A stretch of DNA of 64,000 nt from Azolla caroliniana (lineage: Eukaryota; Plantae; Polypodiophyta), in the NCBI GenBank assembly GCA_043228905.1, contig JBHGNT010000016.1:3286001-3350000 (forward strand), written 5' to 3'. This document shows, piece after piece, positions 11,061-40,913 of this stretch; position 1 is the stretch's first letter, and every line of letters starts with the position of its first letter. The notes under the pieces were generated by a model that was not told the origin of the DNA, made no database searches, and saw nothing but the letters and a program-made list of their open reading frames with translations. The translations under genes and the position numbers were made by a program.

Positions 11061-13317
11061 AACTTATCATACCATGTCGCACTCATCATATACATGTCCT
11101 CCTCACCACCCATCGCCCATGACCTAACATGACCCTAGAGCCATGTTTGGAGACATTACGCCCGCCCATCCGACTCTCTCCACATGTCAATGCATGATGA
11201 TTTGCATGACCATGAATGAATGGAAAGCAAGCCCGCCTCCTTGAATGAATTCCATCGGTGTTTTGGAATGCAAACAACAATCTCTCGTTTATCAACTTTG
11301 TTTTCACAACTCTCATGGGTGTCAATGCTGCATTGATGCAACATCATTGGGTGGATCTCTTGCCCACAAACTATCAAGCATCTTCATCTCTCCTTGTTTA
11401 CAATGTATCACAAACCCTTGCTTCCGAGAAAAACAATCTACGGTAAATATTTATCCATGGCCAATTTATCAATGTGTGTTTGGCATGAATTCAAAACTAA
11501 ACTGAGAATAACTCTTTACGGTACACTCAATCCCATTGTAGAACATTCTAAACCTTGCAACGTAAAGTTTGTAGAAGCGCTTGTTACTATATTCTCTTAC
11601 ATGTCTAAAAGGCAATGTTTTCACGTGGTGCTTTAGCACATAATGTCATGTGTAATAACATCTGTTAATTTCAAGATTGTATTCATTTCGTTATTCCGAC
11701 AAATCAAAATTAATGTATGCTAATGTAATGCTAAGATTTTATGTATATTTCTTCTTCAATATTTGAAGCATACATATTAGATTGATGATTGATCTCAACA
11801 TAATCACACATACACACATTATATATTGTGCTGCCAACATTGATTTCACCCACACCTTTTTGACATTTATGAATACATTTATAGAGAATATGTGGTATAA
11901 TCATGTAGCTCAACATGATCATATCTACTATATATATATGTATGTATGTATGTATAATCCCCCTTGAAGTATCATTTTGGCGAAAACAATACTCACCAAA
12001 AAATATGTGTTGATTCTAGCCTATTGTAATTATATCACACCTCTCAAGGAAAATTGCCATAAGCAATCCTTCTTACATATGGAAAACTAGTTAGTGAACA
12101 AAATAGAAACTTTAACATGTAGTTTGTCAGAAATAAATTTTCCAAAATAAGCAACTTTCATGAGAAACATGTAGTCAGAAGTTGTACTTTTCTATGTACA
12201 TATATCTTGGAAAGGCTTCTACTTGTCATGTTGTTTGAAATGTGAAAATGACATCATTATTAGCTTGTGCCCATGGCCATGCAATGTTGTGCAAGTGTGA
12301 AAATCACATAGTGACCCATCCAATGATACTAGCTTGCCATGTTATGCATCTAGAGAGGTTTGCATTCCTCAAAAGCTCATGTTTTGAAAAAGATAAAGAT
12401 ATAAAGTGTTTGTTTTATGTGATCTCTTTGGATTAAGGTTATTGGATTAAGCTCATAGACTTATTTGATTATTCAACCATATCCACCATCTAAGAACAAC
12501 CAATGATAATCCCGAGTCAAGATATCTAGGGGAAGAAGGATAATAGAAAATAGACCTCATCTACATCTCAATTACACATATTGAGGAAATTTTCCTTTGC
12601 ACAAATTCGAGGAACAATCCCAAAATCCTTGACAGAAATATTCCACATATGAGCAAGGGTAAATCATTTCTCAATGAGCAACCATGAAATATGGACAAGA
12701 TTCCCATATCCTTATGCAATGGAAGCATACTCCCATTTATTCTTTTACTTCACCCATTTTTTTGACATTCGTAACAAAAAAAATTCATTGAGAGTACCTA
12801 AACATACCCTTTATCAATCATAGTACGATATTTGAAATTTGGTTGTTTATGCTTTATGCTAACTAAGAAGTTGTGAACTACAAAAAAGTTTGGATAATGA
12901 CATCGTTGAAAATACATGTGCATCTAGATTTACAAGCATCTTGATTGATAGATGCCATTTGTAACTTTTTACATAGCCCCCTTTACATAAAAGATTGTGG
13001 ATGCATTTCCTTTTTAGTGATTGTTTTAACTTTTCCAAACCACGTTAGCTATTTACTTGTGGAACTTTAAATCGTATTGTACAAATTGAACCAATATATT
13101 CATCATGAGTTCATAGTTATGTTTCTGTTTATTCCATTTGCAAAGGAGAAAGGTAAAATATAAATCGATAAGGTAAATGACATGCTTGCCCATGATGTGA
13201 TAACGTTGACATATCGTTAGTTACCAAAACACAAGCTGCAAATGCTTATCCTTTACTATCAAATATTTCTTAATGTTATACCTTGGATATTGAGATGTAT
13301 GGATCCAAATGAAGAGA

Positions 13318-24336: not shown

Positions 24337-24935
24337 GAAGGAATGAAGTTCCACTTATTTCTTTTCAAACAAAATGTTGGACTTTTGATTCTTCCTAAGA
24401 AATTAATGATTAGGTGAAGAAATCTTCCAGCTCTAAAGAGTTTGACCAATGCACCCATTGGAAAATAAATATGTACAATGCATCAAAAGTTTATTGAGTA
24501 ATTGCTTTAAATTTGCTTTACTCAAACTCCAGCACGAGGACAACTTGACAATATATGATTGACAGATCAATAATACATGGTGCTATCTATGACTAGAGTT
24601 GAATTTTACCATCTACATACATACAGACCATGAGCTAAAGTTCCAAGCATGTCCAAAGAACAAATATGTATGTGTTTCAAGCTGCCCCAAAATGCCCAAA
24701 GGGTTATGAAAAAATAAAAACATAAAAGAATACTTAGAATGTGTGTCTATATGAACTCAAGTGTGCAAATAAGTGTGACTGCCACCATACATACTGTTGC
24801 TCTTTTATACCATTTTTGAAATGATCTCCAATCCAAAGGCCCAGACTAGTAGTATATCACTAATATTATAGAGTTTTCAATTCTTCTTTACTTCTGGTTG
24901 CAAACGCACCATTATCTCCGAGGAACCTTATTGTT

Positions 24936-27071
24936 ATGGCCTCTTCTTCTTCCTTCATCATCCCCATCTTCCTGGTTTTCTGGGCAATCTCTGTTCTTAA
25001 TGCCTCATCATCATCTTCTTCTTCATTTAACACTAATGTCCAATTCCATTTCAATGGCTTCTCCCTCACAGATGTCTCCCACTTCAACTTCACCCAGTAC
25101 TCCAACATACAATTCACTGCATTGCAGGTGACGTATGACACCGGCTCTCGTGATATTGCTATCCTCAATGCATCTGGCCAAATCACATATCAAACTCCCC
25201 TCCGTCTCAGGGACAAAACACACAACTACACAGCATCCTTCAACACCTCCTTCTTGATCAATATGGGGCCAACCCAGGATACCGGCAAGAACATCTCCGG
25301 TGGCGGAATGGCCTTTATATTGAGCTCGCATCCTGCACAGGATGTGCCCCGTAGCTACGGGGCAGGACTCGGACTCGTTGATCCTTCAAACCCCTCGTCT
25401 ACCAATGATTCTAACTTTGTGGCTATCGAATTCGACACCTTTTATGACCCCGGCATCGACCCCCACAACGCCAACCATGTCGGCATCGATGTCAACACTG
25501 TCAAGTCTGCGGTCACCCAAGACCTCGATGCATATAACATCACTTTGAATCAGAATCTCTTGAACGTGGGAACCTACACATGGGTTTGGATCGATTATGA
25601 TAGCCATGCCAAGGGCTTCGACATTTTCCTCGCTACCAAGGTCTCGAACAGCACCATCCCAAAACCTAAGGTGCCTGTTATTCAGTATTGGTTAGAACTT
25701 GATCAGATCCTTCCGGAGAATGTCTACTTGGGCTTCTCTGCATCCACAGGCACCATCAAAGAGACCCACTGTGTCCTACAATGGTACTTCAACTCCACTA
25801 GCTTCCCCAAGGAAAACAACAAAACCCTAATCATAGGCCTCTCTGTGGGCTTATCCATACCACTCCTTCTCATAGCTTCCATGGTGACGCTCTGCATTAT
25901 CAAACAGAGGAAAGTGCAATCAGATCTACTTAAGCATTTAGGAGATCTAAACTATGGTCCCAGGAGATTCTCTCATAGGGAGCTGAAGAGGGCCACTGGC
26001 AAGTTCAGTGAAGGGAACAAGCTTGGGGAGGGAGGTTTTGGCTCGGTGTACAGGGGGAGGCTAGCCTCCATCAATACAGAGATAGCAGTGAAGTGCCTGT
26101 CGTCCAAATCCGCACAAGGAGAGAGGGAGTTCAAAGCAGAGATACGAAGCATGGGGAGGATGAGGCACAAGAACCTGGTCCAGCTCCTTGGGTGGAGCTA
26201 TGAGAACTGCAACAGAAAGCTCATGCTGGTCTATGAGTACATGCCCAATGGAAGCTTAGACAGATGGTTGTCTACAGGAGGCAGAAATTCTCGGCATAGC
26301 TCCACAGATCCACATCCTTTCAGTTGGGAGAGACGATACAACGTGTTGCGAGGGGTAGCAGCAGGCCTTCACTACCTCCATGAAGAATGGGAGATGGTGG
26401 TCATACACAGAGATCTGAAGCCAAGCAACGTGATGCTGGATGAGGATTTCAATGCGAGGCTAGGCGATTTCGGCCTGGCCAAACTCATCAGAAACCGTAA
26501 CCGTAAGCCTGATGGAGATGGACAGAGTATTCAGACGACTTCGATTGCTGGGACGTTAGGTTATATGGCACCAGAGTGTTTGGAGGCCGCAGTCATAACA
26601 AAGCAGTCGGATGTGTATAGCTTTGGAGCCGTGGCTATGGAGGTTGTCACAGGAAAGAAACTCTCCACACAGAATCTGCATCGGCTATGGATGATTAAGG
26701 CAGAAAGTGGTAATATTCTGAACAGTGAGTTTGCAGAGGAGAACGGTATCATCGGTTATAGCTCCCATGGAAGCTTAGAAGAGAGGGAGCAGATGGAGAT
26801 GGTGCTAGAGATGAGCTTAGCTTGCTGCCATCCTGATCCTTCCTGTAGACCTACGGTGCGTCAGATCGTACACGCCCTTTCGTCTTCTAATGGTGATGAT
26901 GGTGATGGAGACCCTAACCTGTCCACAGCCGTAACCTGGGAACACATTCATCGTTACATGAACTATCTGTCTGAATCTACCCAATGTAACAGGACCCCGG
27001 ATCCTTCTGCTTCTTCTTCTCCAGCTGCCATGGATTCTTCCATATCTCTACCATCACAGACAGGGAGGTGA
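24936..27071 (+). CDS. L-type lectin-domain receptor-like Ser/Thr kinase, copy D (711 aa, intronless)
   Basis: Uninterrupted ORF with signal peptide, lectin domain, TM helix and complete RD-kinase motifs (GEGGFG, IAVK, HRDLKPSN, DFG, APE). Confidence 0.96.
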   Translation: MASSSSFIIPIFLVFWAISVLNASSSSSSSFNTNVQFHFNGFSLTDVSHFNFTQYSNIQFTALQVTYDTGSRDIAILNASGQITYQTPLRLRDKTHNYTASFNTSFLINMGPTQDTGKNISGGGMAFILSSHPAQDVPRSYGAGLGLVDPSNPSSTNDSNFVAIEFDTFYDPGIDPHNANHVGIDVNTVKSAVTQDLDAYNITLNQNLLNVGTYTWVWIDYDSHAKGFDIFLATKVSNSTIPKPKVPVIQYWLELDQILPENVYLGFSASTGTIKETHCVLQWYFNSTSFPKENNKTLIIGLSVGLSIPLLLIASMVTLCIIKQRKVQSDLLKHLGDLNYGPRRFSHRELKRATGKFSEGNKLGEGGFGSVYRGRLASINTEIAVKCLSSKSAQGEREFKAEIRSMGRMRHKNLVQLLGWSYENCNRKLMLVYEYMPNGSLDRWLSTGGRNSRHSSTDPHPFSWERRYNVLRGVAAGLHYLHEEWEMVVIHRDLKPSNVMLDEDFNARLGDFGLAKLIRNRNRKPDGDGQSIQTTSIAGTLGYMAPECLEAAVITKQSDVYSFGAVAMEVVTGKKLSTQNLHRLWMIKAESGNILNSEFAEENGIIGYSSHGSLEEREQMEMVLEMSLACCHPDPSCRPTVRQIVHALSSSNGDDGDGDPNLSTAVTWEHIHRYMNYLSESTQCNRTPDPSASSSPAAMDSSISLPSQTGR

Positions 27072-28632
27072 GAGAGGTCATCCATCTTCTTCTTCTTCTT
27101 CTTCGTGCTTCATCCCTGATCTTGTTTAAGTAGTTAGTTTAGCAGGATAATGTAGGGGGAGGGGAGGGGTATTCCCAAAATATTTGAGAAAATACACACA
27201 CATACGTAACATTGATATACATGTACACATACATGTACATATACATACAATATACATATACATATACATATATGTGCATCAATAGCCATATGCATATGAA
27301 TATATAGATACATAGAGATATGCTTAAGCATATGCATATAAGTACATACATACATATATGTATGTGTATGTATGGATGGATGGATGGATGGATGGATGGA
27401 TGGATGGATGGATGTAAACTTATCATACCATGTTGCACACATATACATGTCCTCACCACCCATCAACCATCACGTAACATGACATACGAGTCATATTTGG
27501 AGACAATACCCCCCACGAGTCTAACTCTCTCCATATGTCAATGCATGATGATTTGTATGACCATGAACGAGTGGGACGCAATCTCACCTCGTGAATTCCA
27601 TCAGTGTTCTGGAATGCAAACAACAATCTCTCATTTATCAACTTTGTTTTCGCTACTCTCCTAGTGTCGATGCAACACTAATGAAGCATCCATCATTGGG
27701 TGTTTCTCTTGCTCACAAACGATCAAGCATCTTGATCTCTCCTAGTTTACAATGTATCGCAAACCCTTGCTTGCGAGAAAATGATCGGAGGTAAATATTT
27801 ATCCGTGGCCAAATTATCAATTTTGTGTTTGGCATGAATTCAGAATAACTCTTTACAATACAGTCAATCCCATCGTACAACATGTTAAAGTTGCTACGTA
27901 AATTGGTGTCATCAACTTTCTTCTTCTTCTTCTTCTCTCTTCTCGACATCCCCCTCATACACATCGATCCCCGTCATCCCTCGCATACACCCCTCTTTTG
28001 TATCACACGAGACTACATATTGTAGCCGTGAAATCTTTACTTAAGCTTTAATTTTTGTTTTTCGGTAGGACATGCTTGGGACTACTTTTTTTAGTAGCCG
28101 TCATTTTTGTACTTTTCAAAACTCTACCCCCCTTCATTTTCCTAAACTACCCTCCCACTCAATTTTCATTAATTACCACCCTACCCTTCCCCTCATTTTT
28201 CCCTAATTTCCACCTTACCCCTCCATTACCCTTTAGTTTAATACCCTCCTACCCCTCCCATAGTACCATCCTACCCCTACCCTCACTTTTGAAAATACTC
28301 TCCTCACCCTCCCCTACTTTTCATATTTTTACCTCTAGCCCTCCCCTCATCTAAACAATACTTTATCCCTATCCCTCATCTCTGTTAAAACTCTACCTTC
28401 CCCTTCTCTCTTACTTTTTAACCCCACACGTGTGCCCACATCACCATGCCCTTTTCCCTAGCTTATAACAACCTTACCCCTCCTTCCTTAAACATGCACA
28501 TGCACGTGTGCACATATACATACACATCCCTTCCCCACATCTAGCCCTATCCCTCCCCTCATCTAAACCCATACTTTATCCCTATCCCTACCCCTCATCT
28601 CTCTTAAAACTCTACCTTCCCCTTCTCTCTTA

Positions 28633-30045
28633 AGGGTGGCTCTTTGACTCATTAATGACCCCCTCCCTCATGTATGCATCAGCGGTTTGGGCTCCAGGAT
28701 TACCATCCTTCATGTGGACGCAATTAGAGAGACCATTGGTGATGATGTTATCACACCAACTCCGAAGCAAATCGACTATACCACATGACATTATTAGGGC
28801 CGAGTTCACGTTACCCCCAATGCTAGTAGAGGCACTTTTTCAACTTGTAGTCTTTATTGATAGGATACATAGCCAACCACATGATAGAATATCTCATCAA
28901 GCCTTTAAGGCCTCTCGATCATTGTATGAGTCCGGCTATACTAGCTCATGGTATGGCATGATGGTGACTTGGCTTCTTGCGAATGGTCTAGACATTAATA
29001 ACCTACCTCCCCTCAGGTACAACCACACGAGTGATAACACCCTAATCTCTCATGAGAATCGTAATAAAGTAATACGCCAAGAAATATGGCAAATTTACAC
29101 TCGGTGTAAATGGATCACCCCACTAGAGCCACTCCCATCTAAAATGTCGTACTATAAGAAACACTTCATGCACTTCTCTGAGTTAGGTTTTATCACGCGG
29201 CCAAAATATCTAGATGTATTCTTACCACATGCACTAAGGGTTGCCATTGGACAACTTAGAATATCATCTCACCAACTTGAGATTGAAAATGGTCGTACTA
29301 GTGGAGTCCCTAGGGAGGAAAGGATATGTAGGTTATGTCACATAGAGATAGAGGATGAGTACCACTTTACATGCAAGTGTCCAACCTATGCCGAGATAAG
29401 GGCAAAATACCAAGACATACTTGGTCCGTCTCCCACCCTCCCCAAACTATTAGATACTCTAGATATAAAGAAATTAGGCAAATACATTCTAGAGCTAAAA
29501 CAACACAGAGAGAATAAATTACAAAATGTTGACAATAATGTTGCTAATGATCACGAACATGTAACAAATGCAGTTTTTCAGGAACCTGAGGAGACAACGA
29601 ATGCCGACACACTTGCACCACTCGCCTTTCCATTGATGAGGCAGAAAACCAGAGAAGAACCAGACGTCCTCGGGTGCCGGGTTTCAAAGCAACTCAACGT
29701 GATGTGGAAGCAATATTGAAAATAAGGGAACGTGAGCTACACCGCCTAGAAGCCATGGCTAGGGCACTCTCTACATTGGATCCCACATCAAGACCCTTTG
29801 ACCCCCCACTTCTTTTCGAGAGGCTTGGGTGGAAATAAAATTAGGCTTAGTGTATAGTCACTTTCGAGTATACTACATATTGTACACTACTAGAACTCTT
29901 TTAGTTTTAGTTCTATTTTTTTTACTTAATTTTATTTTAGTTATGATGACTAGATAAATACTCTATTGTTGTAAACCAATTGTCTCATGGGCCAAATTTG
30001 GCCTTAGAAGACGTTAATACATCTTTCTTTCTTTCTTTCTTTCTT
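28633..30045 (+). mobile_element. 5'-truncated RTE-X-like LINE fragment
   Basis: ORF 28655-29719 begins in an RT thumb-like region (LFDSLMTPSLMYASAVW) and has LRISSHQLEIENGR...RICRLC...EDEYHF..CP.Y, a CCHC finger. 3' UTR ends in a (TTTC)n tail at 30022-30045. Confidence 0.8.
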
Positions 30046-30412
30046 ACATTTTACCCCATACCTTCCCCTCTCTCTTACTTTTTAACCCCACACGTGTGCC
30101 CACATCACCATTCCCTTTTCCCTAGCTTATAACAACTTTACCCCTCCTTCCTTAAACATGCACATGCACGTGTGCACGTATACATGCACATCCTTTCCCC
30201 CTATCTCTCACTTCTCCCTACACTCTTTCCCATACCCTCTCACTCCTTCCCTCTTACTATTTCCTTTTCCCTATCCTTAAAAAACCTTAAACCTTACACA
30301 TCCCACTATCTTTTTCTCCTCTTAAATGTGCACATATGCACATAGCACACCCCTACCCCCCCAATTCCCAACTTTGATCACACACCCTCACTCTACCCCT
30401 CTCCTAAATTCC

Positions 30413-30420
30413 TATATAAA
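30413..30420 (+). promoter_or_regulatory. TATA box upstream of the hammerhead
   Basis: CCTATATAAACC, ending 17 bp before stem I of the ribozyme. Confidence 0.55.
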
Positions 30421-30437
30421 CCCCCTCCCTCACCCTC

Positions 30438-30498
30438 ATGGTCTTATGTTGGCACTGATGAGCCCTTGATGGGCGAAACTAGTTTGCCATAAGACCAT
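30438..30498 (+). ncRNA. Minimal type I hammerhead ribozyme
   Basis: Stem I ATGGTCTTA(TGT)TGGCA / TGCCATAAGACCAT; core CTGATGA; stem II GCCC-TTGAT-GGGC; GAAA; palindromic minimal stem III (ACTAGT); GUU cleavage triplet, predicted cut after 30484. Confidence 0.88.
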
Positions 30499-33229
30499 AC
30501 CTCAAACCCCATGTAATTTTTCATTTATAATGTTAATTACATGTTTTTAATTATGTTTCTCTCCCTCTCCCTCTCTCTTTTAATCATGTTTTAATTTTGT
30601 TTTGTTTTTGTAGTTCGTAATAGCACCTCTCTCTTTCATTTTTATTAGTATGGTAATCCTCTCCCCTCCCCTTACCCCTCGTTTTTAAATTTTAATTATG
30701 TTTTTAATCTCATTTTTTAGTTTTAATCTTAGGTTTATTTATGTTTTAATCTCTCTCTCTCTCTCTCTCTCACTTTATTTTAATTAGTATGTTAATCCCC
30801 CTCCCTTTAACCCTATCTTTTAATTTCTTTCTAATTACCTCACCCTTTACTTTGTTTTTAGGTTCATGTTTCTAGATTTAGATTTATGTTTGTTAGTTTT
30901 CGGATTATGTTTTTTGTTTTAGTGTTTATGTTTTTAACCTTAGTGTTTAACCCCCCACCCCTCTTCCTTTTTGTTATTCCTAATCATGCGGGCTCCCTCT
31001 CCTTTCTTCTACCTCGTCTTCGATTCAGGTGCGCTCAAATCGAGCGTGGTGTTCCTCTTCGCTTACCTCTACCTACCGATGATCCACCATTCCGCACTCC
31101 TTGTTCCGACCGCAAGGTCCATAACCCACAACTTCTCTTTGACATTTATGAAAACATATATAGATAATATGTGGTATAATCACGTAGCTCAACATGACCA
31201 TACCTGCAATATATATAATCCCCTTGAAGTATCATTTTGGCGAAAACAACACTCACCAAAACAATTGTGTTGATTCTAATCTATTGTGATTGAATCACCC
31301 CTCAAGGAAAATTGCCATAAGTAATCCTTCATAGATTTGTATGGAAAACTAGGTAGTGAACAAAATTGAAACTTTCGCATGTAGTTTCGTTCGAGAAATA
31401 AATCTTCTAAAATAAACAACTTCCACGAGAAACATGTAGTTAGAACTTGTACTTTTCCATGTATTTCTTGGAAAGGCTTCTGCTTGTCACGTTGTTTATT
31501 AGGTTGTGCCCCATGGCCATGTGATGTTGTGCAAGCGTGAAAATGACATAGTGATTACGTTAGGTAGCAACCCGTCCAATGATCATAGATGACCATCTTA
31601 TGCTTTTGGAGAGGTTTTCATTCGTCAAAAGCGTATGTTTTGAAAAAAAGAAGGATATAAAGATTTTGTTTTATGTGACCTCTTTGGATTAAGTTCATTG
31701 GGATCACTACCAAATACTCATTTGACTATTCAACCATTCAAGCCATCTAAGAAGAACCAATGATAATCCCGAGTCAAGATATCTAAGGGAATAGAACTCA
31801 TCTAGTAATCTGCATCTCAATTACACATGTCGTGGAAATTTTCCTTCACACAAATTCGTGGAAGGATCCCAAAATCATCATTAAGTCTTGACATATTTAT
31901 CCACATATGAGCAAGGCTATATCAACATCATTAAATAATGAACAACCATGAAATAAGGACAATTCCCATGTCCTTATGCAATGGAAGCATATGCCCATTT
32001 GTTTTTTTACTTCAATTATTTATTTGAAACTCGAACAAAAAACTTTACCCATCGAGAAATTTGATTAAGAGTACCTGTAACCTAAACATACCCTTCAATG
32101 AAGGTACGTAATATTTGTGTTCTTAGCCCAAACATTCGTTTTCATACTGATACAAACGAATGCGTATGTTATAAAAACATTCTTTTGTTTTTTTTAACAC
32201 TTTTACCTTAATTTTCTTACCCTAAAAAAAATTTACCTTATAAAAAATAATGAGTGCAAAAGTATGGTATTTACCATACTTCGAGGGTGTTTTTCTTACA
32301 CGAATGATTAGAATGTTTGCAAATGCGAATGCACGAATGGTATGCTATGATTCATACTATGGCCTTCATCAATCATAGTATGATATTTGAATTTTGCTTG
32401 TTTATATTTTATGTTCACTAAGGAGCTGTGAACTACAAAAAAGTTTGGTAATGATGTCATTGAAAATACATGTGCATCTAGATTTATAATGATAGATGCT
32501 ATTTGTAACTTTTTACATAGTCCCTTTGCATAAAAGACTTTTTTTTTTTCCAAAAAAAAACTCCTTCCATTAGTCTTTGCATAAAAGACTTCAAATCATG
32601 TTGTACAAATTGAACCAATACGTTCTATCATGAGTTCATAGTTATGTTTATGTTTATTCAGTTTGCGAAGGAGAAAGGTAAAATAAAAAGCGATGAGGTA
32701 AATGACATGCTTGCTCATGATGGTGATAATGTTGACATATCATCAATTACCAACACATAAGCCACAAATGCTTATCCTATACTATCAAATATTTCCTCAT
32801 GTTATACCTTGGATATTGAGACATATGGATCCGAAGGAAAACAACCTTGCCTTCGCAAAATCTCAAGATGTCGTAATGAAAGGGGTAGTCAATCCTGTTT
32901 ATGTAGTCAAATACTTTAGACCCCAAAACCACATCTTCCCATATGTCATGTCCTTATAGGATCTTTCAACATGTAACCTGGTTACAAAAACTAGACAACG
33001 ACGCATATAAAGCTAAACAAGGAATGAAGTCCAAGATCATATGTTGGCATTCCAAAATTGTTCAACATGTCATACATATAATTGGGGCTTATCTTGGACT
33101 TGATTTTGTCAAAGTAGTTATAAGTCATCACATATTCGATCCAAGTGAGTATCTAAAAGCACTTATGGGTATCAATTATGTAATCTTGTAAGAATCCACA
33201 CACCTTAACAGATGTTGCAAGGTGGCTCT

Positions 33230-33838: not shown

Positions 33839-34373
33839 GTGGCTCTAACCATTATATAAATTGGTACATTGACTTTACTAATGCTAGGATGAAATCGTGA
33901 TGTTGATAGATCTATATTGACCTATGGGAGCAATTTTTCAAAATGCCCTCTTGATTATTGAAGTAGAATATTTGGTGGTAACTCATAGCTACAATCTACA
34001 AACAAACAACATTTCTCCACAACTAGTGGGATCTTTTAAGCAATAACCTCGAGATTCCACTGTGTTCATGTGCTAACTTGACCACTTTGCTTGATTGGCT
34101 ACATATTATCAGTTATATATATATATAGAAACTACCCTATATAGCCTTTCTCCAAAAATATCTCCTAACTAATGGGAAAGTAGCTCCTTTTTTGGATTAA
34201 AAAACAAACACCTCCTATTCCTTGGTCTCTTCTTTCCTTTTGTATATCAAAAGTTTTGGGCCTCATAAAATCAAACCACAAAATGGGGCAAATGGGCATA
34301 TACAAAGTGCTCACCACTTGTAAATTCAAGAGTCAAGAAAAGGTAACGTGGAAGAATAGCAATTACATGCTTT

Positions 34374-36377
34374 GTTGTTAAAGCTTCGTGTATTTTTACA
34401 AACACGTGCTAATAGAAACGTGAATTACATCAATATGTTATTCCATACATCAATAGATTTGCACGTGCTAATACAAGCTAGTAACCCATGAATATTCACG
34501 TGGTGTTGTGCATATAACTTACATGAATCTATTGGGTTAATATTCTTTTTTGAAACCTTTCCACTAAAAATATAGCCAAAACTAGATGCATGATGGAATG
34601 TACATGTGCATACATGCTTGTAAGTTGTATGCATGCATGCATCTATGTATGTATATACGTATGTAATAGGCATATATGTATGTATGCAAATATACATACA
34701 TACACGTATGTAAATGTATGTATGTATAATACGTATTTCAAATTATTCAAGATTTCAATTTTCAGTTTTAAAATTTTATACTTTTTAATATTTCAAATTA
34801 TTAAAGAAATTAAACATTAAAAGGCATGAAATGCAATGGATATGAATCTAATATTCCCCTCCACATAGAGCAATCTCCTAAACATTAAAGGTAGAATAAA
34901 CCACTAAACATTAAAAGGCATGGAATTCAGTGTATATGAATCTAAGTTTCCCTTGGAGAAATCTCGCCACTCACAAAAGGAAGGAAAATAGAAATTTCCT
35001 AATTCTCATATTAAATAAGTCTAAGAGTCACATTAAAAACGTGTTGTTAAAGCTTCGTGTATTTTTACAAACACGTGCTAATAGAAACGTGAATTACAGC
35101 AATATGTTATTCCGTACATCGATAGATTTGCACGTGCTAATACAAGCTAGTAACCCATGGAAAATCACGTGGTGTTGTGCATATAACTTACGTGACTCTA
35201 TTGGCTTAATATTCTTTATCGATACCTTTCCACTAAAAATATAGCCAAAACTAGATGCATGATGGAATGTACATGTGCATACATGCTTGTAAGTTGTATG
35301 CATGCATGCATCTATGTATGTATATACGTATGTAATAGGCATATATGTATGTATGCAAATATACATACATACACGTATGTAAATGTATGTATGTATAATA
35401 CGTATTTCAAATTATTCAAGATTTCAATTTTCAGTTTTAAAATTTTATACTTTTTAATATTTCAAATTATTAAAGAAATTAAACATTAAAAGGCATGAAA
35501 TGCAATGGATATGAATCTAATATTCCCCTCCACATAGAGCAATCTCCTAAACATTAAAGGTAGAATAAACCACTAAACATTAAAAGGCATGGAATTCAGT
35601 GTATATGAATCTAAGTTTCCCTTGGAGAAATCTCGCCACTCACAAAAGGAAGGAAAATAGAAATTTCCTAATTCTCATATTAAATAAGTCTAAGAGTCAC
35701 ATTAAAAACGTGTTGTTAAAGCTTCGTGTATTTTTACAAACACGTGCTAATAGAAACGTGAATTACAGCAATATGTTATTCCGTACATCGATAGATTTGC
35801 ACGTGCTAATACAAGCTAGTAACCCATGGAAAATCACGTGGTGTTGTGCATATAACTTACGTGACTCTATTGGCTTAATATTCTTTATCGATACCTTTCC
35901 ACTAAAAATATAGCCAAAACTAGATGCATGATGGAATGTACATGTGCATACATGCTTGTAACTTGTAAGTTGTATGCATGCATGCATCTATGTATGTATA
36001 TACGTATGTAGGCATGCATATACATACGTATAGGCACATATGTATGTATGCAAATATACATACATACACGTATGTAAATGTATGTATGTATAATATGTAT
36101 TTCAAATTATTCAAGATTTCAATTTTCAGTTTTAAAATTTTATACTTTTTAATATTTCAAATTATTAAAGAAATTAAACATTAAAAGGCATGAAATGCAA
36201 TGGATATGAGTCTAATATTCCCCTCCACATAGAGCAATCTCCTAAACATTAAAGGTAGAATAAACCACTAAACATTAAAAGGCATGGAATTCAGTGGATA
36301 TGAATCTAAGTTTCCCTTGGAGAAATCTCGCCACTCACAAAAGGAAGGAAAATAGAAATTTCCTAATTCTCATATTC
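34374..36377. repeat. Tandem triplication of a 669-bp unit upstream of copy E
   Basis: Near-identical blocks; matching spurious ORFs recur at 34425/35094/35763 and 34930/35599 (669-bp period). Confidence 0.95.
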
Positions 36378-36509
36378 ACTGTTCAATGACCGTCCACTTT
36401 TGGGAAATTAAATAAGTCTAAGAGTCACATTAAAAACGTGCCATGGATGTCACATATGTACATTTCCCAAATAATTCGTAGATGGTCAAAATTGACTTAT
36501 AACAAAATA

Positions 36510-36726: not shown

Positions 36727-37523
36727 GAAGGAACGAAGTTTCACTTATTTCTTTTCAATTGAAATGTTGGATTTTAGATTCTTTCTAAGAAATAAATGAT
36801 TGGGTGGCAAAATCTTCCAACTCGAAAAAGAGTTTCAGTTCTAGTTCGTGGGGTACAAATTGACCAATGTACAATACATCATAGAGTTTACTAAGTAATT
36901 GCGTTAACTTTGTAATAACTTCCAAAGCCAAAGTTGGGCATTGTGAGCCCAACATGGTCAACGTGATGCGCATTTTGTACTCGATTCCAGAATGCGGACA
37001 AGTTGACAATATATGATTGACAGATATCAATAATGCATGGTGCAAACTATGACAAGAGTTGAATTTCACCATCTACATACATACAGACCATAAGCTAAAA
37101 GTTCGAACAAACCCTTTTGTTTGTCGATTTGTAGGCTGCCAAAGACACGGAGCTTTTTGAGTTAGGAGGGTAGGTGGTAGTAAACACGATTTTGATAAAA
37201 AGCCAAGCATTGTCCAATGAGCAAATATGTATGGGTTTCAAGCCGACCAAAATGCCCTAGGGTAATAATGTATGACCCCCCCAAAAAAAACAACATTAAA
37301 GAATACTTTGAATGCGTGTCTATACATATGTCTATATGAACCCAAATGTGGTAAGGTGGACATAAGGGTGACAGCCACCATACATACAGTTCCTGAAATA
37401 ATCCCCAATCCAAAGGCCCAGACTAGCATATCATTAATATTATAGAGATTTCAATTCTTCTTTACTTCTGGTTGCAATCCAGATATATCGCATGCACCAT
37501 TATCTCCGAGGAACCTTATTGCT

Positions 37524-37601
37524 ATGGCATCTTCTTCTTCTTCTTCTTCCATCATTATCCTCATCTTCTTGGTTTTCTGGGCAATCTCTAGTCTGGATAC
37601 C

Positions 37602-37639
<38 letters not shown>

Positions 37640-39773
37640 TTCTTCTTCTTCTTCTTCTTCTTCACATCAAACTAATGTCCAATTCAATTTCAATGGCTTC
37701 TCCGTCACAGATGTCTCCCGCTTCAACTTCACCCAAGACTCCAACATACAATTCACTGCATTGCAGGTGACATATGATACCGGTTGTTGTGACAATGCCA
37801 TCCTCAATGCGTCGGGCCAAATCACATATACCACTCCCCTCCGTCTCTGGGATACTGAATACAACTACACAGCTTCCTTCAATACCTCCTTCTTGATCAA
37901 CATAGGGCCGACCCAAAATGCCGGAAAGAACAACTCCGGTGGCGGAATGGCCTTCATACTTAGCTCGCATCCTGCACAGGATGTGCCCAATAGCTATGGG
38001 GCAGGGCTCGGCCTCATCGATCCTTCAAGCCCCTCACCCACCAATGATTCTCACTTTGTTGCTATCGAATTCGACACCTTTTATGACCCCGGCATTGACC
38101 CCCACAATGCCAACCATGTTGGCATCAATGTCGACACTGTCAAGTCCGTGGTCACCCGAGACCTCGATGCATATAACATCACTTTGAATCAGAATCTCAA
38201 AGACAAGGGAACCTACACATGGGTTTGGATCGATTATGATGGCCATGCCAAGGCCTTCCACATTTTCCTCGCTAACCAGGTCTCGGACAGCACGGTCCCA
38301 AAACCTAAGGTGCCTGTGATTTCTCGATATCACTTAGAACTCGAGCGGATCCTTCCGGAGAATGTCTACTTGGGCTTCTCTGGATCCACAGGCACCACCA
38401 GAGAGACCCACTGTGTCCGACAATGGCACTTCAGCTCCACTAGCTTCCCCAAGAAAAACAACAAAACCCTAATCAAAACCCTAATCATAGGCCTCTCTGT
38501 GGGCTTATCCATAGTTATCCTTCTCATAGCTTCCATGGTGACGCTCTGCATTATCAAAAAGAGGAAAGTGAAACCAGATCTACTTGAGGATTTGCGAGGT
38601 CTAAACTATGGCCCCAGGAGATTCTCTTACAGGGAGCTGAAGAAGGCCACCGGAGGGTTCAGTGAAGAGAACAAGCTTGGGGAAGGAGGGTTTGGCTCAG
38701 TGTACAGGGGGAAGCTAGCCTCCGTCAGCACAGAGATCGCAGTGAAGTGCCTGTCGTCCAAATCCGCACAAGGCAAGAGGGAGTTCAAAGCAGAGATACG
38801 AAGCATGGGGAGGATGAGACACAAGAACCTGGTCCAGCTCCTTGGGTGGAGCTATGACAACTGCAAAGGAAAGCTCCTCTTGGTGTATGAGTACATGCCC
38901 AATGGAAGCTTAGACAGATGGCTGTCTACAGGAGGCAGGAATTCTCGGCATAGCTCCACAGATCCACATCTTTTCAGTTGGGAGAGAAGATACAACGTGT
39001 TGAGAGGAGTTGCGGCAGGCCTTCTCTACCTCCACGAAGAATGGGAGATGGTGGTCATACACAGAGATCTGAAGCCTAGCAACGTGATGCTGGATGAGGA
39101 TTTCAATGCGAGATTAGGCGATTTCGGGCTAGCCAAACTCATCAGAAACCAGGACCGTAACTGTAACCCTGATGGATATGAACAGAGTACTCGGAGGTTT
39201 TCAATCGCTGGGACTCCAGGTTATATAGCACCCGAATGTTATGAGGCAGGATCCGCAACAAAGGAGTCGGATGTGTACAGTTTCGGAACCATGGCTATGG
39301 AGGTTGTCACAGGAACGAAACTGTGTCCACAGATTTTGCATTGGCTATGGAAGATTAAGGAAGAGGGCGGTAACATTCTGAATAGTGAGTTTGCAGCGGA
39401 GAACGGTATCTGCTACAGCTCCCATGGAAGCTCAGAAGAGAGGGAGCAGATGGAGATGGTGCTAGAGATGAGCTTGGCGTGCTGCCATCCTGATCCATCC
39501 TGTAGACCCACTGTAAGCCAGATCGTCCATGCCCTTTCTTCTGCTAATGGTGATGGAGACCCAATGTTCGCCATCACCGTGACCTCGGAAATGATGGATC
39601 GTTATAACAGAATGTCTGCATATACCTACTCTGAGGAATTCTGGGATCCTCCACCTCCTCCTCCTCCTACTACTGCTACGTCTTCTTCTTCTTCTTCTTC
39701 TTCTTCTTCTTCTTCTGATTTTGCCACTGGCATGGATTCTTCCATCTCTGCGCCATCGCTGACAGGGAGGTAA
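37524..39773 (+). CDS. L-type lectin-domain receptor-like Ser/Thr kinase, copy E (749 aa, intronless)
   Basis: Uninterrupted ORF: signal peptide, long poly-Ser, lectin domain, TM helix, complete kinase (HRDLKPSN, DFGLA, GTPGYIAPE), Pro/Ser-rich tail. Confidence 0.96.
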
Positions 39774-40329: not shown

Positions 40330-40871
40330 ATGGATGTAGCTCAGTTGGTAAGGTTGCCCAATGGAGACCAGGTGGTCATGGCCTACATTCCACAGTGGCA
40401 TCTAATGAATTAAGAGATATATAAGAAGTATATAATAGAGAGGTGAAGAAGTTGAGAGAGAGAGAGAGAGAGAGAAATATTAACGTCTTCTAAGACCAAA
40501 ATTGGCCCATGAGACAATTGGTTTACAATAAAAATGGGGTATTTACCCATTCATCAAAAGTAAAAAAGAAAAAGAAACAAAAGAATAGAACTTAAGCTAA
40601 AGGGTTCTAACAAAAAAAGAAAAACATGTTCTATAAGGAAATGACTTTATACTAGGCCTAATTTAATTTCCATCCAAGTCTCTCGAAAAGAAGCGGGAGG
40701 TCAAAGGGTTTCGATGTGGAGGTGGCTTGTGGTCCCAATGGAAAAGATACCACAACCATAGCTGCTAGGCAATAGCTCACATTCCCTTATCTTGTTAATT
40801 GTTTCTACTCCACGTCGAGTTGCTTTGAAGCCCGACATCCGAGGGCGTTTGGTTGTTCTTTGCATTTCTAC

Positions 40872-40913
<42 letters not shown>

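Follow-up and report, generated by a model that had tools for sequence, protein, structure and literature searches.

Endonuclease-deficient (EN-) Penelope-like elements (PLEs) are placed at telomeres by the literature (PMC4209133, PMC8557442). The telomere-associated elements of Selaginella moellendorffii (Coprina group) encode a reverse transcriptase (RT) only, carry a type I hammerhead in the pLTR and form partial tandems (PMC4209133, PMC8557442). Earlier publications already cover the hammerheads of Selaginella EN- PLEs, PLE derivatives that are non-autonomous, and internal initiation. Internal RT initiation has its precedent in an EN+ element, Poseidon of Anolis, which has a GIY-YIG nuclease and homology-free priming and starts within the ORF, near the pLTR-ORF junction, beside a stem-loop and 3' of the hammerhead (PMC11167929). 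For the same anole PLE, hammerhead cleavage was partial or dispensable in vitro (PMC11167929). Animal non-LTR retrozymes are non-coding, PLE-derived units of 150-450 bp with a type I hammerhead and a palindromic stem III (PMC7229834; bioRxiv 10.64898/2026.07.22.740005), and the preprint treats EN+ PLEs only. Plant LTR retrozymes are non-coding retroelements with a type III hammerhead in a promoter-bearing repeat, a PBS and PPT, 4-bp TSDs and Ty3-gypsy partners (PMC4918200). Chlamys PLE-X elements of Chara and spike mosses are EN-less, hammerhead-bearing and non-telomeric in early-diverging plants (PMC8557442). The literature leaves the question of how EN-less PLEs insert away from telomeres.

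We analysed a window of 64,000 nucleotides, meaning the whole stretch of DNA presented, from the fern Azolla caroliniana, together with copies of the same hammerhead family elsewhere in the genome. Like the Selaginella elements, the family has an RT of the same clade and, in some subfamilies, a telomere-like spacer (the telomere repeat in this genome is CCCTAAA). Unlike them, it is mostly interstitial, includes many non-coding subfamilies, has an invariant GUU site and has a spacer mostly diverged from the telomere repeat; it also has two ORFs, as reported for an Ascochyta Coprina element (PMC13159263). The window's subfamily shares with animal non-LTR retrozymes its non-coding nature, PLE derivation, type I hammerhead and palindromic stem III, but it occurs in a plant as dispersed, 5'-truncated partial tandems, its partner has no endonuclease and it keeps a remnant of the ORF1 start. 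In clean sister copies the non-coding unit measures ~2 kb and is partially tandem, in contrast to non-LTR retrozymes, whose tandem units are short and each carry a hammerhead. As in Poseidon, reverse transcription would begin inside the RNA close to the pLTR-ORF junction, beside a stem-loop and 3' of a hammerhead, but here the 3' ends precede the ATG with microhomology and some genomic copies begin at the ribozyme cut. The window's subfamily also resembles plant LTR retrozymes as a non-coding plant retroelement whose hammerhead sits in a promoter-bearing repeat, but its ribozyme is of type I, its 5' ends vary and it has a PLE as partner; our search for TSDs was blind to those of 4 bp.

We consider it probable that an intact type I hammerhead, carried in the terminal repeat of a non-coding element that parasitizes an RT-only PLE, cuts its RNA in vivo and so gives 5' ends at which the partner's RT would run off. 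The new aspect is the footprint of this mechanism in the genome: 5' ends that start at the cut, 3' ends confined to a narrow part of the spacer, mostly interstitial copies and a 5S-derived element with the same priming signal. The genome acts as a fossil record for the question left by the literature; its entries are insertions that begin at the cleavage base, priming confined to a narrow window and accompanied by microhomology, and a 5S-derived RNA made mobile with the same 3' ends. In our literature search, no paper turned up that describes genomic copies with 5' ends at the hammerhead cut of a PLE. The features of the window copy are as follows.

27904-31127, + strand: non-autonomous PLE derivative, 5'-truncated, aligning to clean copies (e.g., L062, from L062:4149)
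27904-28632, + strand: left part of the non-coding C/T-rich body
28633-30050, + strand: nested, unrelated 5'-truncated LINE, outside the hammerhead family; right end approximate
28634-29719, + strand: C-terminal piece of the LINE ORF; the LINE ends in a (CTTT)n tail
30051-30412, + strand: right part of the body, 5' of the promoter
30413-30420, + strand: TATA box, TATATAAA, read directly from the sequence
30438-30498, + strand: type I hammerhead with GUU site and palindromic stem III; predicted cut between 30484 and 30485
30438-30454, + strand: stem I, 5' strand, beginning 25 nt past the first T of the TATA box
30455-30461, + strand: hammerhead core CTGATGA
30462-30474, + strand: stem II, 4 bp, GCCC/GGGC
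30475-30478, + strand: hammerhead GAAA
30478-30483, + strand: palindrome ACTAGT (stem III)
30484, + strand: H17, a U
30485-30498, + strand: stem I, 3' strand
30485-31093, + strand: tail; in tandem copies, the 5' leader into the next unit's ORF1 start
31094-31119, + strand: conserved GCACTCCTTGT box and hairpin, putative RT-binding/priming signal
31108-31119, + strand: 4-bp GACC/GGTC hairpin
31120-31127, + strand: start of the priming spacer, which is the element's 3' end; ACCC at 31124-31127 is common to the target

The segment 30438-30498 is a genuine type I hammerhead with a conserved core, three stems and an open stem I. An earlier note, made from the letters of the window, had described a minimal type I ribozyme with a palindromic stem III, and the core, stem II, stem I (14 bp with a 3-nt bulge) and ACTAGT were all confirmed in the sequence. 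The word minimal is doubtful, because the long bulged stem I and the match to Hammerhead_HH9 suit the canonical type I of Selaginella PLEs (PMC4209133). That match (25 bits, E=0.0012) fell under its cut-off of 52, and nothing in Rfam reached the gathering score. In the 64-kb window this was the sole core with a paired stem II. Its folding z was -3.65 and -4.71, and none of 200 shuffles was equally stable. The MFE of the monomer is an inactive fold in which the core CUG pairs with the loop III UAG (-25.2 kcal/mol), as compared to -23.4 kcal/mol with stem III open.

Across the 523-Mb genome the core pattern matched 310 times and its reversed control 14 times, and the stems covary among copies. 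Among 22 copies chosen as representatives, pairing held in 92.7% of stem cells, one stem II pair swapped between C-G and U-A (10 versus 11 copies), and the covariation score was reached by 0 of 500 shuffles. The distal stem I helix was GGTC/GACC in 42 of 61 distinct motifs, GACC/GGTC in five and GGCC/GGCC in one; the partner was inexact in nine and the 5' motif absent in four. A TATA box lies 36-42 nt 5' of the core across subfamilies, and it was missing in just 6 of 100 copies among the matches listed, those six being truncations or a deletion. The earlier placement of the hammerhead near a TATA-driven start was upheld, with the TATA box at 30413 and stem I from 30438 in the window.

GUU is a weak hammerhead site, and it had been suggested that the window's GUU might be a weakened or decayed one. 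This proved wrong: U17 was present in 107 of 107 bona fide hammerhead contexts across subfamilies (from 113 contexts with six judged spurious by eye, and with incomplete de-duplication of positions), so GUU is the family's consensus state. GUU is counted among cleavable hammerhead sites (PMC3138052). The proposal of a retroelement family linked to PLEs and predicted to self-cleave was upheld. Its description as possibly undescribed holds only in part, with no fern EN- PLEs found in our literature search but hammerhead-bearing EN-less PLEs already described in Selaginella; the original Selaginella, Terminon and conifer descriptions, which lay outside the search, may report interstitial or non-autonomous copies. 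Contigs of a run merely presumed to be RNA, from which ends and expression are not readable, cover related copies, one of them across the uncut hammerhead.

Taken alone, the window copy is unremarkable: it is dead, broken and non-coding. The earlier note had missed this inactive, non-autonomous state, as well as the LINE that interrupts the copy upstream of the ribozyme. The upstream repeat is missing, and so are ~110 nt at the start of the ORF1 remnant; the copy therefore cannot make full-unit RNA, and its body contains an internal duplication (28394-28542 versus 30059-30206, 94.6% identity). A paralogous segment of the window represents the empty site, with the element's flanks matching 11356-11566 and 11848 onward, ACCC common at the 3' junction, and 281 bp of target missing between the flanks relative to the paralog. 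This paralog is only ~80% identical, hence the 281-bp deletion could be independent of the insertion.

The nested LINE has at least 150 near-identical genomic copies (5176 candidates), and several full copies have an intact 1245-aa ORF with an N-terminal endonuclease-like region. We rejected the hammerhead as part of this LINE's 3' UTR, since sister copies lack the LINE, which is nested here as an insertion of its own. A second LINE fragment lies inverted at 40454-40875. The PLE copy sits between two lectin receptor kinase ORFs, and intronless genes of this kind form a tandem cluster in the window (24864-27071 and 37446-39773, with paralogs near 8.6-11 kb and 2.2-3.8 kb; 79-85% alike). A unit of 669-695 bp is present in three tandem copies with 94-97% identity at 34373-36440.

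The family's repeat unit is ordered as TATA box, hammerhead, tail, conserved box and hairpin, spacer, ORF1 ATG, and body. Other hammerhead subfamilies lie 3' of a PLE-type RT, and a tandem array on C22 yields a complete autonomous unit of 5.58 kb encoding an ORF1 of ~850 aa and an RT of 668 aa that overlaps ORF1 in the -1 frame. The RT has a DKG-like motif and a motif A to B' spacing of 58 aa, as in canonical PLEs. The family resembles Chlamys PLE-X as an EN-less, hammerhead-bearing element of an early-diverging plant lineage with insertions mostly away from telomeres, but it has no insertion-in-fingers, no rDNA target and no CxC motif seen by eye in the partner. GIY-YIG was absent from the junction-to-junction translation of the complete unit (Pfam), an N-terminal GIY-YIG of the Naiad/Chlamys type was not found 5' of the RT, and a genome scan for GIY-YIG gave a single hit among nine candidates, unrelated and away from any element.

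The partner RT fell in a FastTree clade (support 100) with proteins of Selaginella, Cryptomeria and a Gb-labelled entry, in a tree built without named Coprina references and in which the Selaginella protein (38% identical) is an uncharacterized entry. None of these proteins has a precomputed GIY-YIG. This grouping with Selaginella and conifer RTs makes the kind of element an already known one. By RT type, missing GIY-YIG and hammerhead-bearing partial tandem pLTRs, the autonomous partners are EN-deficient Coprina-like PLEs. ORF1 had no Pfam match and no homologs, its atlas matches were under 0.9 and its structure model was unusable (pLDDT 41), so a novel nuclease is conceivable. The complete 5.58-kb RT-only element forms nearly identical, head-to-tail arrays at interstitial positions on C22 (L181-L183, C22:8.946-8.968 Mb), C29 and C400, and these are the likely active source.

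The window's subfamily is a non-autonomous PLE derivative, having no coding capacity and sharing its cis termini with the autonomous PLE. Like the other non-coding subfamilies it keeps ORF1's first codons, retaining only the cis frame and the first 20-70 codons. Likeness to the known partners is confined to the TATA-hammerhead region, the box and the weak ORF1 remnant, which matched at 79 of 130 nt (1 of 500 shuffles scored as high). We did not find a direct autonomous parent of this subfamily. A link in trans is seen at L057, where an inverted RT fragment and a piece of the window's subfamily lie within a single 675-bp duplication. None of six measured tandem copies, sister subfamily included, carried the upstream TATA box and hammerhead of a competent master copy. 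Two own-type hammerheads were not seen in any one locus of the window's subfamily among the loci examined, while some other subfamilies do have them.

All 21 mapped 3' ends of the subfamily fell 4-18 nt into the 26-nt spacer and matched it, with none at the ATG, from which we infer that priming is internal and that the RNA template extends into the following unit. Box-to-ATG junctions numbered 63 versus 0 in the control. The cassette hairpin was 95% paired with double changes at three pairs (16 junctions). The priming cassette by itself gave no folding signal (z from -0.45 to +0.33), and the columns of a candidate box-to-GGAG pairing were invariant. Microhomology of at least 3 nt was present at the 3' junction in 11 of 27 reconstructed empty sites versus 12% in the matched null (P=1.6e-4), and another 11 of the 27 showed apparent gaps of 3-11 nt in place of overlap. 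Box and hairpin would together constitute an RT-binding and priming signal common to the autonomous partners and the 5S-derived element.

The latter gives independent support for the cassette. It is 431 nt long (L103, G000:C1:21396754-21397616), and part of it resembles 5S rRNA (Rfam E=7e-6, just under the cut-off). It has no hammerhead but shares with the PLE the box, the hairpin, the spacer and the ATG context, with 35 motif hits versus 0 in the control. At the 25 loci fetched, its 3' ends lay in or at the start of the telomere-like spacer, and its 5' ends clustered at the 5S start (about -190) and the 5S end (about -90). The element is a candidate SINE that would parasitize the PLE RT, and a Cassandra LTR is a possible origin of the 5S segment. 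We found nothing in the literature searched on a PLE-dependent SINE or 5S element. An unrelated 5S-derived RNA would have become mobile on gaining the priming cassette alone. The evidence defines a short, testable recognition signal for a class of RT related to telomerase, and intact young RT copies are present in the genome for use in an assay.

At the other end of the copies, we analysed 52 motif sites, comprising 8 internal junctions and 44 termini that correspond by hand count to 33 independent insertions. Four of the 33 (L193, L229=L234, L235 and L223) begin at 0 or -1 from the cut (binomial P = 1.5e-6, assuming uniform ends over the 800-nt tail). Nine further copies start at 0 to -2 (L230, and 5 of 77, 2 of 2 and 1 of 1 in pattern searches that detect only boundaries inside the 7-10 nt upstream of the cut), bringing the total to 13 across four subfamilies with different stems. 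Among 14 boundaries in the zone upstream of the cut, 13 were at 0 to -2 and the sole other was L240 at -5; boundaries near the cut are ambiguous (-5 to +4) for L239, L240 and L194. An empty site was found for 4 of 11 cut-start cases, each with 2-3 nt of microhomology beginning at the cut. In L231 and L069, a cut-start copy is fused directly to a spacer end, which is what a template jump predicts.

Copies that start at the predicted base point to cleavage in vivo, and the hammerhead RNA likely cuts itself in the plant before being copied into chromosome breaks. Most copies hold an intact, uncut hammerhead, implying that cleavage is partial or not required. It is highly improbable that the pile-up instead reflects an RT stalling on the fold of an element that seldom cuts and is conserved for its structure or for protein binding. 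The weak GUU site and the inactive MFE fold would suit such an element, as would the anole PLE, for which no RNA reads were seen at the cut (PMC11167929). However, stalling predicts stops at the foot of stem I (+14) and not at its inner end, and the same base was struck in four subfamilies whose stems differ while the catalytic core is nearly invariant. Four other boundaries (3 of 100 among the matches listed, plus L097) lie 4-10 nt 5' of the core, 28-34 nt past the TATA box, hinting that transcription may start inside stem I rather than before it. One could then speculate that the capped transcript's first ribozyme, without its distal stem I, would be spared and thereby protect ORF1 translation.

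Under the reading we prefer, that of an RNA cut in vivo and copied by a partner RT, Pol II would transcribe tandem copies from the TATA box, and the weak, dimer-type GUU ribozyme would cut just part of the RNA. RT supplied in trans would bind the box and hairpin and prime within the spacer on a free 3' end of host DNA, using 2-7 nt of microhomology at a break and no endonuclease of its own. Copying would stop at random or at the ribozyme cut, leaving tail-only copies, or else pass an uncut ribozyme or religated junction and regenerate the promoter-bearing upstream repeat. Such upstream repeats extend across the cut by 65-417 nt in seven loci of other subfamilies, and those spanning cut and TATA box need an uncut ribozyme in a multimer or circle.

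The form of the template bears on a tentative alternative, in which a religated circular RNA resembling that of a retrozyme is primed internally and the RT rounds the circle, sometimes stalling at the ligation scar. Work on viroids suggests that RT could be halted at the cut base by a modified ligation junction, and upstream and downstream repeats of one locus are 88-100% identical and can span both cut and TATA box. A circular template is also the model proposed for PLEs in PMC4209133. Yet linear multimers from existing tandem arrays (C22, L189, L198) would give the same products, and a circle still requires cleavage, differing from our preferred reading solely in template form.

The copies are mostly interstitial, rather than telomeric as in described EN-deficient PLEs. 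None of 36 sites of the window's subfamily lay closer than 100 kb to a scaffold end; on C1-C8, with all subfamilies pooled, 5 of 88 sites did, versus 0.8% expected. Only 4 of 19 scaffold ends examined carry telomere repeats, and terminal copies may therefore be under-assembled. A few copies are subtelomeric. One of these (L109, C7:3500-13400) is an autonomous copy beside the telomere that points to the end, with its ORF1 cut and capped by telomere repeats; terminal copies usually have the reverse orientation.

Flanking duplications of 19-675 bp accompanied 8 of 32 insertions, some of whose targets were already tandem repeats, and 24 of 32 had no detectable duplication in a search that could miss those under about 11 bp. 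Other subfamilies had duplications of 125, 978 and 1095 bp. LINE target-primed insertions typically duplicate 7-20 bp. It is unlikely that interstitial insertion used nicks made in trans by an abundant LINE endonuclease instead of spontaneous breaks: the genome does contain a candidate source in the young LINE with an endonuclease-like region that is nested in the window copy, but the predominance of insertions without a detectable duplication, the sizes of the remainder and the 281 bp missing from the window copy's target are unlike LINE TPRT.

We give roughly even weight to a broader reading. An EN-free Penelope system would have left the telomeres and would patch chromosome breaks, with the box-hairpin-spacer cassette setting where a copy starts and an attenuated GUU hammerhead, cutting in vivo, setting where it ends. 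Many non-coding parasites would have captured this cassette, including a would-be 5S-promoter SINE riding on the Penelope RT, and its box, hairpin and spacer would be placed like a template boundary and template.

Some sites had more complex structures. Inverted, back-to-back PLE pieces occupied single sites at L108, L238, L198 and L136, as if both ends of a break had been extended. At L194 (C5:3885743-3893182), an eight-copy tandem array was built from a 1058 bp unit around a tail-only PLE copy.
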